This document shows positions 5,084 to 51,483 of a stretch of DNA of 64,000 nucleotides, piece by piece. The stretch comes from an uncultured archaeon. GTDB lineage: Archaea; Aenigmatarchaeota; Aenigmatarchaeia; CG10238-14; SCSR01. Position numbers and translations under genes: made by a program. The number at the start of each line of letters is the position of its first letter. Positions within the stretch are counted from its first letter, which is position 1. The notes below the pieces were generated by a model. That model was not told where the DNA came from and ran no database searches. It saw only the letters and a list, made by a program, of their open reading frames with translations. The DNA is taken from assembly GCA_964372485.1 (NCBI GenBank), contig CAYJQI010000001.1:523714-587713 (forward strand), given 5' to 3'.

Positions 5084-6591
5084 ATGCCGTTTAGTAACAA
5101 AGTATTCAAGAAACCTGAGTTCAAGAAAATATCAGATGTAATCTGGGAAATACCTACAAGTTTCAAACCTGGAATGAGAGTTCCTGCTAGAGTATATGCT
5201 AGTAAAAAAATTGTAGATCAAATGGACTTGCATGTGTATGATCAGATAACAAATGTTGCCAACTTACCAGGAATCCAAAAATATGCATTCTGCATGCCCG
5301 ATGGCCATATCTCTTCTAGTTAATTCTAAAGAGAGACAATTCCGGGTACGGATTTCCGATAGGAGGTGTTGTAGCATTAGATCCAGAAGAAGGTGGAGTT
5401 ATTTCACCCGGAGGAATTGGTTATGACATCAATTGTGGAATGAGACTCGTTCTAACAAATCTAACTTTGAATGATGTTAAACCTCATCTGAAAACTTTGG
5501 TTGATAAATTATTTGATCGAGTTCCTGCTGGTGTTGGTTCAAGCGGATTTGTAAAATTAACAAAAGATGATTTTAGAAAAGTTGTGATGGAAGGTTCTGA
5601 ATGGGCTATTGAAAAGGGATATGGTTGGAAGGAAGATTTGGAACGAACAGAATTAAATGGTAGAGCTGATTGGGCAGATGTTTCTAAAGTTTCATCGAAA
5701 GCTGTTGAAAGAGGAGTTAATCAAATAGGAACTTTAGGTTCTGGTAATCATTATCTGGAAATTCAAGTTGTGAAGGATGAAAATATTTTCGACAAGGAGC
5801 TTGCAAAGAAATGGGGACTATTTCCAAATCAGATTGTTATAATGTTCCACTGCGGATCACGAGGATTTGGTCATCAAATCGGAACAGATTATTTGGAATT
5901 ATTCCTTTCAGTGATGGAAAAGAAATATGGAATTAAAATTTTGGATCCAGAACTAGCATGCGCACCATTCAACTCTCCGGAAGGACAAGATTACTTCAAA
6001 GCGATGGCATGTGGTGTGAATATGAGCTTCGCTAATCGTCAAGTTATTCTACATAGAATTAGAGAAGTATTCTCAGATGTCTTTAAACAAGATGCAGAAA
6101 AATTAGGAATGAAAATGGTTTTTGACGTTTCACATAACAGAGCTTCGTTAGAAGAACATGAAGTCGATGGAAAGAAGAAAAAGTTAGTTGTTCATCGAAA
6201 AGGTGCAACAGGTTCTTATCCTCCAGGTCGAGTGGAAATACCAAAATTGTATCGTGATGATGGTAGTCCAGTAATTATAGGTGGAAGCATGGAAACAGGA
6301 TCATATCTTTTGGTCGGCGGTGATAAAGCCAATGAGACTTTTTGTAGTACTGCGCATGGGAGTGGAAGAACAATGAGTAGAACTGCTGCTACACGACAAT
6401 TTAAAGGCGAAGTATTGCATAAAGAGATGCTTTCCCGTGGGATATATGTCAAATCTGTATCATGGTCAGGACTTGCTGAAGAAGCCGGTGGTGCATACAA
6501 GAATGTTGATGATGTCATAGAAGCTACCCATCAAGCGGGGATTTCTAAAAAAGTAGTAAAACTTTTACCAATTGGTAATTTGAAAGGCTGA
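5084..6591 (+). CDS. rtcB: RNA-splicing ligase RtcB, reading frame interrupted by a 32-nt insert at 5309-5340
   Basis: ORF 5084-5323 ends ...LPGIQKYAFCMPDGH. The shifted frame from 5341 reads SGYGFPIGGVVALDPEEGGVISPGGIGYDINCGMRL and runs into ORF 5440-6591. That ORF carries the GSGNHY, HCGSRGFGHQ, HRKGAT and STAHGSGR blocks typical of RtcB. Confidence 0.85.
5309..5340 (+). other. 32-nt intervening sequence inside the rtcB active-site motif (candidate mRNA intron, indel artefact or disruption)
   Basis: Sequence atctcttctagttaattctaaagagagacaat. Removing it restores MPDGH-S-GYGFPIGG in one frame. Internal pairing: 5310-5315 with 5331-5336, and 5317-5319 with 5326-5328. Confidence 0.6.
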
Positions 6592-23825: not shown

Positions 23826-24078
23826 GGCGTGCTGCCCATAGTCCCTCTTTTGTTTTGGTAGCATTTATCTAAGCCCTTACGGTTGCACCCAAGGTTATAC
23901 CAGACCGTTTCATTCCATTACCAGCACTTCACTTGAGCTCATCATACTGCTGTCATGGATCCGTTTCTGATTCTGGTTCTGACTTCTCAGCCAGCTGCTT
24001 TCACAGCACCTTAACGGGTGGAGAGAACTTCCTCATTCACACTTTGACATGTGAACGAAGCTACCTGTTCAGCTCGCC
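23826..24078 (-). ncRNA. rnpB: RNase P RNA (compact, about 250 nt)
   Basis: GC-enriched non-coding block. On the minus strand: P1 GGCGAGCUG/CAGCACGCC, P2 GGUAGC/GCUACC, P3 hairpin UUCACA...UGUGAA. CR-I-like GAGGAAGUUCUCU pairs with CR-V-like ACAAAAGAGGGACUAU to form P4. AGAUAAAUG resembles the bacterial AGAUGAAUG. TTTAAATA box at 24111-24118 upstream. Confidence 0.75.
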
Positions 24079-48760: not shown

Positions 48761-50155
48761 ATGAAAGTCATTATGGGACTGGAAGTTCACGTCCACTTAC
48801 TCACTAAAAGTAAACTCTTCTGCAGTACATCGGCAGATTACGAAAATAAAGGACCCAATGAAAATACTTGTCCAATATGTTTGGGATATCCGGGATCAAA
48901 GCCTGTATTGAATAGAAAAGTTGTTGAATCTGCATTAATGGTGGCTAAAGCATTGAACTGTAAACCATCTCCTGAAATGTTCTTCTCCAGAAAATCATAT
49001 TTCTATCCAGATATGCCGAAAAATTATCAAGTAACACAATATGAAATTCCCTTGGCTGTTAATGGTTCACTTCAGATATCTGATAAAAAGATTCGAATAA
49101 GGCGAATACAAATTGAAGAAGATCCTGGAAAATTAGTTCATGTTGGAGGAAGCATAACAAACGCACAATATGTTTTGATAGATTACAATCGTGCGGGAAT
49201 TCCATTAATAGAAATTGTTACTGAGCCTGATTTTGAAAATCTTGAAGAAGTTAGAACATTTCTGTCAAAACTACAATCAATATTAGAACATCTTGAAGTT
49301 TATGATCCGAACAAGGAAGCATCTTTGAGAATTGATGCAAATATTTCTGTTGAAGGCGGTGAGAGAGTTGAGATTAAGAATATAACAGGATTTGCAAGTG
49401 TCGAGAAAGCATTGAGTTATGAAATTGTTCGTCAACAAAATCTTGTAAGAATGGGAATGAAAGTTGAAAGAGAGACACGACACTTTGATGAAGTTACAAA
49501 AACTACATCCACATTAAGAAAAAAAGAAAATGAAGAAGATTATGGATATATCTACGAACCCGATCTGCCACAATTTAGTATATCCGGAAAAATGGTTGCA
49601 TCTATAGAAGAACAAATGCCTGAATTACCTGACGCAAGAGTTGGAAGATTTATTAAAGAGTATAAATTACCAGAAAATCAATCACAAATTATTGTATACA
49701 CTGATAAAGCATTGGCAGATTTCTTTGAAGAATGTGTGAAATTATTTAACAAACCGGATTTTGTATCGAGATGGATTGTAACTGATTTGTTAAAAGTTTT
49801 GAATTGGAATAATCTCACTATTAGAAAATCTAAAATTACGCCAAAAATATTTGCAGAATTTTTAAAATCCATGGATAAAGGAGATATTACTGAGAGATTG
49901 GGAAAGGAATTAATCAAAGAACTAGTGCCCAGCGGAAAATCTGTTCAGGAACTTGTTGAATCAAAGGGACTTTCAAAGAAAATAGATTTGGAGACTGTTA
50001 TCAAGGAAGTAATCAAGGAAAATAAAAAAGCGGTTGACGATTATAAGGCTGGTAATGAGAAATCTATCCAGTTTTTAATTGGCCAAGTGCTTAGGAAAAC
50101 TAAATCTGCTGGAGATCCAAATAAAATTAAGGAACTGATAAAGAAAATTATTTGA
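48761..50155 (+). CDS. gatB: Asp/Glu-tRNA amidotransferase subunit B
   Basis: 464 aa: GLEVHVHL.TKSKLFC, CPICLGYPGSKPVLN, YFYPDMPKNYQVTQ, DYNRAGIPLIEIVTEPD, plus a C-terminal YqeY-like tail. Confidence 0.9.
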   Translation: MKVIMGLEVHVHLLTKSKLFCSTSADYENKGPNENTCPICLGYPGSKPVLNRKVVESALMVAKALNCKPSPEMFFSRKSYFYPDMPKNYQVTQYEIPLAVNGSLQISDKKIRIRRIQIEEDPGKLVHVGGSITNAQYVLIDYNRAGIPLIEIVTEPDFENLEEVRTFLSKLQSILEHLEVYDPNKEASLRIDANISVEGGERVEIKNITGFASVEKALSYEIVRQQNLVRMGMKVERETRHFDEVTKTTSTLRKKENEEDYGYIYEPDLPQFSISGKMVASIEEQMPELPDARVGRFIKEYKLPENQSQIIVYTDKALADFFEECVKLFNKPDFVSRWIVTDLLKVLNWNNLTIRKSKITPKIFAEFLKSMDKGDITERLGKELIKELVPSGKSVQELVESKGLSKKIDLETVIKEVIKENKKAVDDYKAGNEKSIQFLIGQVLRKTKSAGDPNKIKELIKKII

Positions 50156-50723: not shown

Positions 50724-50734
50724 TTTATTTAAAT
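50724..50734 (+). promoter_or_regulatory. TATA-like box upstream of tRNA-Asn
   Basis: TTTATTTAAAT is centred about 29 nt upstream of 50758. This is consistent with archaeal TATA spacing if transcription starts just before GCCCCAG. Confidence 0.3.
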
Positions 50735-50757: not shown

Positions 50758-50854
50758 GCCCCAGCAATGCCCCGGTAATTCATCGGGAAAGCTCAGTAGG
50801 TAGAGCGGCACGCTGTTAACGTGATGGTCGAGAGTTCGAGTCTCTCCTGGGGCG
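50758..50854 (+). tRNA. tRNA-Asn (anticodon GUU) with a non-canonical intron between acceptor stem and D-arm; mature 5' end probably at 50769
   Basis: D-arm GCUC AGUAGGUA GAGC, anticodon loop CUGUUAA, T-arm GAGAG UUCGAGU CUCUC, 3' acceptor CUGGGGC plus G73. Both GCCCCAG (50758-64) and GCCCCGG (50769-75) can form the 5' acceptor strand. Confidence 0.8.
50777..50789 (+). other. Predicted 13-nt tRNA intron at position 8/9 (bulge-helix-bulge-like)
   Basis: Helix CCCG (50771-74) / CGGG (50784-87) is flanked by 3-nt bulges GUA (50775-77) and AAA (50788-90). Cutting after the second bulge nucleotide gives GCCCCGG-U-A-GCUC, i.e. U8-A9, and a 73-nt tRNA. Confidence 0.5.
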
Positions 50855-50856
50855 CC

Positions 50857-51483
50857 TCATTTTTCAATAATATACAAATCCACGCTAATTTCTTTCACAG
50901 GTTTTTCATGAAACTTGAATAGATGTGGAATAGGAAACTTGTACGGAAGTATTTTCTCCACCTTACCCCCTTTACTCTCCACGAGATTAGATATAAATTG
51001 TCGTGTTTTCTCGTAACCATTTTTATGTAAACTATAAATATTCTTTCCGCATTCCAATGCTTTTTCTAAAAATGTTTTGTCTGCATGTTCAGTTTGAATT
51101 CCAAATGGAGGATTTTGAATAACAGTATCGCATTTACCCGAGAATTCTTTTATATCAGACGGAACAAATTTTATCGATCCTTTTACAGGCATATTTTCAG
51201 TTAATATTATTTGCAAGTTTTCTTCTGCCGTATCAAGGACTTTACTATCCGTATCTACAGCAACAACTTCCCTCGCTCCAAGCAATAAAGCTCCAAATGC
51301 TAATCTTCCAGTTCCACATCCAAAATCAAAAACAACTTTGTCTTCAATATCTCCATTCAAATGTGCAAAATGTAGTATATCCGCTGCCAAATCACCTGGG
51401 ATTGTATATTGTTCTAATGTTGGTTTTGGGTTTTCGATAGGTTTCAATTTTGATAAAATTATTTCGAGTTGTTTCTTGTTCAT
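50857..51483 (-). CDS. N6-adenine-type (NPPF) SAM methyltransferase, METTL5/RsmD-like RNA methylase candidate
   Basis: Motif I is VFDFGCGTGRLAFGA and motif IV is VIQNPPFG. Confidence 0.7.
   Translation of the reverse strand: MNKKQLEIILSKLKPIENPKPTLEQYTIPGDLAADILHFAHLNGDIEDKVVFDFGCGTGRLAFGALLLGAREVVAVDTDSKVLDTAEENLQIILTENMPVKGSIKFVPSDIKEFSGKCDTVIQNPPFGIQTEHADKTFLEKALECGKNIYSLHKNGYEKTRQFISNLVESKGGKVEKILPYKFPIPHLFKFHEKPVKEISVDLYIIEK

Follow-up and report, generated by a model that had tools for sequence, protein, structure and literature searches.

How can an intron be spliced from a tRNA precursor when its splice motif borrows a strand of the acceptor stem, and why does the gene that carries it begin with two near-identical copies of that strand? 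Both questions are raised by the tRNA-Asn(GUU) gene at 50769-50854 (+) of the window, the whole 64,000-nucleotide stretch of DNA analysed here, which comes from an archaeal genome of 812 kb in 7 contigs with 35% G+C (G000). An 11-nt leader (50758-50768) precedes the gene and is made up of a copy of the acceptor strand, GCCCCAG (50758-50764), and the spacer CAAT (50765-50768) that separates this copy from the mature 5' end. The 5' exon (50769-50776) holds the acceptor strand GCCCCGG (nt 1-7) and U8. It is followed by a 13-nt intron at position 8/9, AATTCATCGGGAA (50777-50789), and by a 3' exon that runs from A9 through the D, anticodon and T arms to the 3' acceptor strand and the discriminator (50790-50854). 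Read directly from the sequence, the anticodon GTT lies at 50815-50817, the 3' acceptor strand CTGGGGC at 50847-50853 and the discriminator G at 50854; CCA is not encoded. The sequence also reads as an oligo-T run at 50860-50864 (+), likely the transcription stop, as such runs are terminators in archaea. All coordinates of the original prediction are correct, and so is its reading that both 5' strands, GCCCCAG and GCCCCGG, can pair with CUGGGGC. The leader copy does so with seven of seven Watson-Crick pairs, the exon strand with one G-U.

In its unspliced form the gene is hard to recognize. The Rfam tRNA model (RF00005) covers only 50790-50846, model positions 9-63, at 43.6 bits (cut-off 29), and ARAGORN run on the unspliced sequence missed the gene and reported no Asn tRNA on the main chromosome. 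With 50777-50789 taken out, ARAGORN called a 73-nt tRNA-Asn(gtt) that has U8 and A9 and whose 7-bp acceptor stem includes a single G-U, in agreement with the 73-nt U8-A9 product originally predicted and with the ARAGORN check that had been proposed for it. According to ARAGORN, Rfam and a T-arm-anchored scan, this is the sole tRNA-Asn(GUU) gene of the main chromosome, and its architecture is kept in six congeners. Since tRNA finders miss genes with this type of intron, the tRNA sets of DPANN archaea can look incomplete when they are not. In G000, ARAGORN and Rfam together give no Met or Trp tRNAs and only partial Thr and Pro sets, and further heavily disrupted tRNA genes probably escape detection in this genome; the segment C1:290623-290760 (-) resembles a tRNA-Asp with several inserts. 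A gene for GatB, subunit B of the Asn/Gln-tRNA amidotransferase (PF02934, PF02637), lies at 48761-50155 (+) of the window, 600 nt 5' of the tRNA-Asn.

The splice motif of the window gene is built on the acceptor strand itself. Exon nucleotides 3-6, CCCG (50771-50774), pair with CGGG in the intron (50784-50787) to form a central 4-bp helix, flanked by GT|A on one side and by the 3-nt bulge AA|A (50788-50790) on the other. In this geometry the four exon bases ending two before the 5' cut pair with the four intron bases ending two before the 3' cut. The originally quoted rule of cutting after the second bulge base holds with 4/4 pairing in the cleanly bounded canonical 37/38 introns of G000 (Gly-GCC, Gln-CUG, Glu-UUC) and with 3/4 pairing in four other canonical introns of the genome. 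Among 17 distinct homologous genes the central helix is 100% paired, with two-sided changes at all four pairs. The bulge-helix-bulge (BHB)-like fold originally proposed thus stands as far as CCCG/CGGG with GTA and AAA is concerned, but its inner helix of A-U and U-A is impossible as it would close a 2-nt loop. Because no inner helix can form, the motif is a relaxed one (bulge-helix-loop), and it departs from the strict hBHBh' form in that the 5' site lies in a 9-nt loop and the outer helix has at most 2 bp. A strict hBHBh' motif with the leader or spacer as the outer helix was considered, and no consistent pairing was found for it. The Lys homologues do have an inner helix, of 5 bp. As the intron and the 3' exon both begin with A, the product is identical whether the junction is placed at 8/9 or at 9/10; of these, the helix geometry favours 8/9.

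Two side observations concern introns in related Asn genes. In G002 (L002/L088) and G009 (L005/L086) the stretch from the central helix to A9 is 5-6 nt long (TTAAA, TTTAAA) instead of 3, which could reflect either tolerance of the endonuclease for a larger 3' bulge or a different junction. In the Asn genes L002-L006, from the same genus, the anticodon stem (around 30/31) holds a second insert, about 22 nt long, that is missing from the window gene, suggesting rapid intron turnover within the genus.

If the outer copy rather than the inner one were the mature 5' strand, 50765-50788 would be removed and the tRNA would carry A8 and begin GCCCCGGUAGCUC. ARAGORN recognizes this product as a cloverleaf whose acceptor stem is perfect, although the program cannot discriminate between the products, and the outer copy does lie at a normal distance from the promoter. 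However, the base at position 8 would then vary between A, G and U from gene to gene, whereas a U follows the inner copy in every homologue. The helix rule gives no pairing at the cut sites that such a product requires (CCCC vs TCGG). Moreover, eight Arg genes carry the identical intron and lack an outer copy, which requires the inner strand to be exon. Given the above, it is very unlikely that the tRNA starts with the outer copy. Splicing to the outer copy through leader nucleotides 3-6 and the intron would be possible for Lys and fails for Asn (A opposite C), and was therefore rejected as a mechanism of general validity; in the window, the leader copy pairs incompletely with the intron strand of the central helix (A63 opposite C84, last two digits of the positions).

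The arrangement of leader and intron is not confined to the window gene. A search of G000 for similar leaders, suggested at the outset as a check, found a tRNA-Lys(CUU) gene with both leader and 8/9 intron and a second tRNA-Asn gene with the upstream copy. The Lys gene (C1:678660-678798, -) has the layout GGGTCCA-A-GGGCCCA-T|AACAACTAAAGTTGTGGGCAG|AGCTC... with the 3' strand TGGGCCC, and its intron forms a good 5-bp inner helix; it carries at least two more inserts (close to where the D stem meets the anticodon stem and within the variable region) and scores only 16.8 bits with Rfam. Outside G000, the same layout of leader and intron is present in the Asn orthologues of six congeners and one other family and in the Lys genes of six genera.

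The frequency of the leader was assessed with a covariance model that spans G1 to the end of the D arm, with the intron and the two helices, and holds no upstream sequence, thereby avoiding a bias toward places where a leader is expected. G002 and G009, with their longer 3' bulge, were left out of the model alignment. After curation, a search of 118 genomes of the order gave 41 genes with an intron at 8/9 and 7 with an intron one base later; G016 (the 3' end of a neighbouring tRNA), G030 and G034b were set aside as false positives of the model. For each gene, the 30 nt upstream of G1 were scored for the 7-mer that pairs best with the gene's own 3' strand. The scores are bimodal, being either 7/7 or at most 6. 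Among genes with the 8/9 intron, a 7/7 copy precedes all 17 Asn genes, all 11 Lys genes and 4 of the 12 Arg genes, while the single Thr gene (G014b) reaches 6/7 at best (0/1). With the 9/10 intron, one of seven Lys genes has the copy. Scanning the phylum (151 genomes) added one case from another order, G197, with GCCCTCT-CTAATGA-GCCCCCC-T|... and the 3' strand GGGGGGC. In total, a 7-mer with full 3'-strand pairing within 10 nt of G1 precedes 32 genes in the order as well as the G197 gene, and the layout spans four tRNA families. Judging from tRNA family, acceptor sequence and spacer, we estimate that these represent perhaps 10-15 independent leader events and not 33.

The Lys genes with the 9/10 intron form a class of their own, in which the central helix uses nt 4-7, the inner helix has 4-7 bp and no leader is present (L094, L097, L098, L100, L103 and L071, from G003b, G005, G100, G027b, G020b and G024b). 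One gene, in G044 (L101), combines the 9/10 geometry with a leader. As eight Arg genes with the 8/9 intron and six of the seven Lys genes with the 9/10 intron are without a copy, the leader seems to be helpful but not essential. In the leaderless genes, a hairpin formed co-transcriptionally, before the 3' strand exists, could suffice.

In tRNA genes without such introns the upstream copy is rare. Of the other full-length tRNAs of G000, only 1 of 33 has a 7/7 copy and 30 of 33 have a best match of at most 5/7. Among 50 ARAGORN-called tRNAs in the fetched loci, the sole 7/7 match was a mis-called member of the 8/9 set, leaving 0 of 49 true controls, and none of the 10 Asn orthologues without the intron has an upstream copy. 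Similarly, the T-arm-anchored scan of G000 (42 candidates) found two tandem 7-mers complementary to the 3' strand in only three real genes. Taken over about 90 control tRNAs, the copy is absent save for two relic-like cases. A Fisher test gives p ~1e-22, a value uncorrected for relatedness and thus inflated by the relatedness of the genomes. The duplication of the acceptor strand exceeds chance. One tRNA-Asn gene without the 8/9 intron (L107, G034:C17:2098-2135) has an upstream GCTTGAGG complementary to its own 5' acceptor strand GCCTCAA, a reverse form of leader pairing that may be due to chance.

Termini of tRNA genes are common integration sites at which mobile elements leave direct repeats (PMC3293823), and the copy might accordingly be a leftover attachment-site repeat of an integrated element. 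Attachment-site repeats, however, measure tens of bases and enclose kilobases of inserted DNA, whereas the copies here are 7 nt long and 0-10 nt apart. No integrase or element lies near the window tRNA-Asn, and four tRNA families show this layout. An origin as an attachment site is therefore extremely improbable.

The sequence of the leader appears to be maintained for its pairing with the 3' strand. Among orthologues, the identity of the leader 7-mer is 0.90-0.92 as compared to 0.35-0.44 for the 14 nt just upstream, and the spacers vary in sequence as well as in length (0-10 nt). The leader is even more conserved (0.90) than the mature strand (0.83) in one Asn group. Between G000 (GCCCCAG/CTGGGGC) and G006 (GCCCCGA/TCGGGGC), two 3'-strand positions and the two leader positions facing them have changed, with the inner strand GCCCCGG the same in both; only the position of the G-U pair in the acceptor stem shifts. 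The G000-type genes, G006, G098b, G031b and G017 have leaders that complement the 3' strand perfectly, and where the two copies differ (G000, G006, G051, G098b, G031b, G017) it is the leader that matches the 3' strand and the inner copy that matches the intron. The 3' end of the intron pairs with the inner copy in 100% of the cells compared, and its pairing with the leader fails in four. Two G-to-A changes in leaders sit exactly opposite a U, and the remaining deviations are C-to-U changes that keep a G-U pair, the one departure from this being G014b with a U-U mismatch. The leader pairs less strongly with the 3' strand than the inner copy does in several Lys genes (GGGTCCA vs GGGCCCA). Overall, 99.2% of leader/3'-strand positions pair, a figure that is partly circular as the set was chosen by that pairing. 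The case is not rested on it but on the bimodality of the scores, the controls, the conservation relative to the flank and the positions at which the copies differ. On this comparative evidence, the pairing between leader and 3' strand appears to be selectively maintained.

Small tandem duplications are a likely source of the copy, and a simpler account is that it is nothing else: a functionless, neutral by-product of slippage near a hairpin. The leader of G095c is a fresh 17-nt tandem duplicate of exon 1 and the start of the intron (13/14 identical), and the two 11-nt units of the window, identical at 9 of 11 positions, look like an older version of the same kind of duplication. Copies without an intron and many intron-bearing genes without a copy might also be expected if the copy were neutral. 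However, a neutral copy would not account for a 7-mer that is 90-92% conserved across genera and families with spacer and flank scrambled around it, for deviations that nearly all keep the 3'-strand pairing, among them the G-to-A changes opposite U, or for the decay of the copy in genes that lack the intron. Neutral duplication accounts for how the copy arose and not for its maintenance, and as a full explanation it is quite unlikely.

That decay can be followed at one locus. A second tRNA-Asn of G000, on the 2.9 kb contig C5 (2956 bp), reads GCTCTGGTAAT|GCTCTGGTAGCTC, with an exact upstream copy and no 8/9 intron. At the orthologous locus of G057, which has the same flank and likewise no intron, the copy is eroded to GTTTCGG with 6/7 pairing, and at that of G070 it is gone. 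Erosion of the copy without the intron, from C5 to G057 to G070, fits a function that is tied to the intron. Duplicate genes for tRNA-Asn(GUU) and tRNA-Arg(UCG) lie on contig C5 (L126), and since both are most closely related to genes of another family, the contig is probably a mis-binned fragment, foreign to the genome bin. A copy without the intron, a similar remnant, was also seen at the tRNA-Lys-UUU of G020, where GGGCTCA-GGGAAAAG precedes the gene (L065, G020:C26, ~134550-134720); this upstream stretch looks like the remnant of a leader together with the end of a lost 8/9 intron.

Folding predictions place the two copies in competition for the same 3' strand. In the minimum-energy fold of the precursor with the leader, 50758-50764 pairs with 50847-50853, the intron forms a hairpin with the real 5' strand, and the D, anticodon and T arms are retained. 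Without the leader, the real 5' strand closes the acceptor stem. Constrained ensemble energies were computed for 39 valid genes, excluding the rows for G044, G002Asn and G009Asn. The difference between the splice-competent and the closed-acceptor fold is between +0.8 and +7.5 kcal/mol in the absence of the leader and between -1.6 and -12.3 kcal/mol in its presence, the window gene shifting from +3.2 to -7.1 kcal/mol. In the spliced RNA, the model predicts a leader helix as stable as the true stem in terms of secondary structure. With the two helices equal after splicing, release of the leader would rely on tertiary folding, which is outside the model.

For the leader to act in this way it would have to be transcribed, which the promoter spacing supports. 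In ordinary tRNA genes of G000, the best TATA-like box lies 29-39 nt before G1 in 22 of 30. The TATA-like box of the window gene, TTTATTTA (50724-50731, +), is at -34 from the start of the leader and -45 from the inner G1. The start of the leader thus falls where the box would predict transcription to begin, as had been proposed, within the range of ordinary genes. The same spacing trend is found in 8 of the 12 leader-bearing homologues with a clear box.

Starting from the gene and its intron, the competing helices with their conservation and covariation, and the modelled energy shift, we infer that the leader is transcribed and that a definite order of events and set of enzymes follow. As the central helix needs both nt 3-6 of the 5' acceptor strand and the end of the intron, splicing competes with closure of the acceptor stem. 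Transcription would probably start at or just before 50758. The leader GCCCCAG, which complements the 3' strand better than the real 5' strand does with its G-U, would hold the 3' strand, so that the remainder of the cloverleaf folds while the small hairpin displaying both cut sites retains the real strand. Cleavage by the splicing endonuclease would then follow, after U8 and before A9, and RtcB would join the exon ends, leaving a spliced intermediate that still carries the leader (GCCCCAGCAAUGCCCCGGU-AGCUC...). With the intron gone, the real 5' strand could displace the leader as a U8/A14-type core forms, and RNase P would trim the 11-nt leader by cutting after U50768, the presumed RNase P site. 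Genes for the presumed players are present. The window encodes an archaeal RNase P RNA at 23827-24077 (-) (Rfam RF00373, 107.7 bits), the presumed remover of the leader, and an RtcB RNA ligase at 5341-6588 (+) (PF01139, C1:529054-530301, E 3e-154), the presumed joiner of the exons. G000 has one homologue of the splicing endonuclease, a PF01974 match in a 199-aa frame (C1:120833-121111).

We consider it probable that the leader is a selected mimic of the acceptor strand that frees the 5' strand for the relaxed BHB motif and is later removed, presumably by RNase P. The idea of such a leader, put forward in the original prediction, finds support in its recurrence, covariation and conservation, in the promoter spacing and in the erosion of the copy without the intron; every prediction of it that sequence can test is supported. 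The main benefit of the same pairing could nevertheless lie elsewhere than at the splice site, with the leader serving as a tether that keeps the 8-nt 5' exon on the tRNA body once it is cut, as an aid to 3' trimming and CCA addition before splicing, or as a shield of the unpaired 3' strand against exonucleases. The evidence for pairing between leader and 3' strand applies equally to such roles, a 5' exon of only 8 nt would be held by just 4 bp once cut, and the leaderless genes keep their intron, so formation of the motif is not strictly leader-dependent. However, these roles do not account for the tie to introns that use the acceptor strand or for the absence of leaders from tRNAs with introns elsewhere, nor for the large energy shift toward the splice-competent fold. 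A main benefit away from the splice site is unlikely, and it overlaps with the acceptor-mimic model without excluding it; sequence data cannot separate the two.

The intron of the window gene has much in common with the non-canonical BHB and bulge-helix-loop introns of Crenarchaeota, Nanoarchaeota and other DPANN archaea (PMC4090602, PMC4033280). Like them, it is short, protein-spliced and placed outside 37/38, and it has a 4-bp central helix, cuts two bases into 3-nt single strands and a relaxed motif; as in that group, the endonuclease of the lineage is expected to be broad in specificity (PMC3239211, PMC5829648, PMC12397907). Endonucleases of the alpha4 type with an extra loop go together with highly disrupted tRNA genes in DPANN archaea (PMC5829648). 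The positions listed in two reviews are 3/4, 20/21, 22/23, 25/26, 29/30, 30/31, 45/46, 53/54, 56/57 and 59/60, with 8/9 absent (PMC4090602, PMC4033280). Unlike the described non-canonical introns, the one here uses the acceptor strand itself for its central helix, and its gene has an extra element, the leader.

The leader also has a parallel in the split tRNA genes of Nanoarchaeum equitans and Caldivirga (Randau 2005, reviewed in PMC4090602), where complementary pairing of leader and trailer, discarded non-tRNA extensions, likewise creates the helix on which the splice motif is built. In the split genes, the extensions of the two halves pair with each other and the endonuclease cuts them off (PMC4090602). 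In contrast, the leader described here imitates an exon strand, pairs in cis with its own 3' acceptor strand and lies outside the splice motif, so that another enzyme, presumably RNase P, would be needed to remove it. In the papers searched in full text, pairing by leaders was found only for split and permuted tRNAs, whose leaders pair with another extension and are removed by the endonuclease; no leader that imitates the acceptor strand was found.

Switching between competing helices is known from attenuators, anti-terminators and the leader-trailer pairing of bacterial and yeast pre-tRNAs. As in those systems, two exclusive helices would share one strand here and a third segment would decide between them. 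Unlike in them, the switch would be driven by removal of an intron and not by a ligand, ribosome or protein, and it would serve to put two processing steps in order. The leader would then offer a simple case of an RNA that sets the sequence of its own maturation steps. The usual description of archaeal tRNA introns is that they are transplantable, as the endonuclease reads nothing beyond the local bulge-helix-bulge. The leader suggests a limit to this view, in that a motif borrowing the acceptor strand makes folding competition matter and allows a built-in helper to evolve. It would also explain how an intron persists in the most constrained part of the tRNA. We lean, by a narrow measure, toward the broader proposal that DPANN archaea of the Aenigmatarchaeota type have evolved an undescribed class of cis-acting element in their pre-tRNAs, a transcribed decoy of the 5' acceptor strand that holds the 3' strand until an acceptor-proximal intron is removed. 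Such a decoy would order splicing before 5' maturation, permit intron positions that are otherwise blocked, arise by small tandem duplication and be lost with the intron. The leaders would accordingly offer a visible series of birth and decay, from duplication through selection to erosion after loss of the intron.

A 21-nt Lys intron, AACAACTAAAGTTGTGGGCAA, is near-invariant across genera and in two families (L061-L074; G023, G020, G017, G034, G089, G088 and G074). The tRNA bodies and other introns vary where this one stays the same, an unusually strong conservation for an intron.
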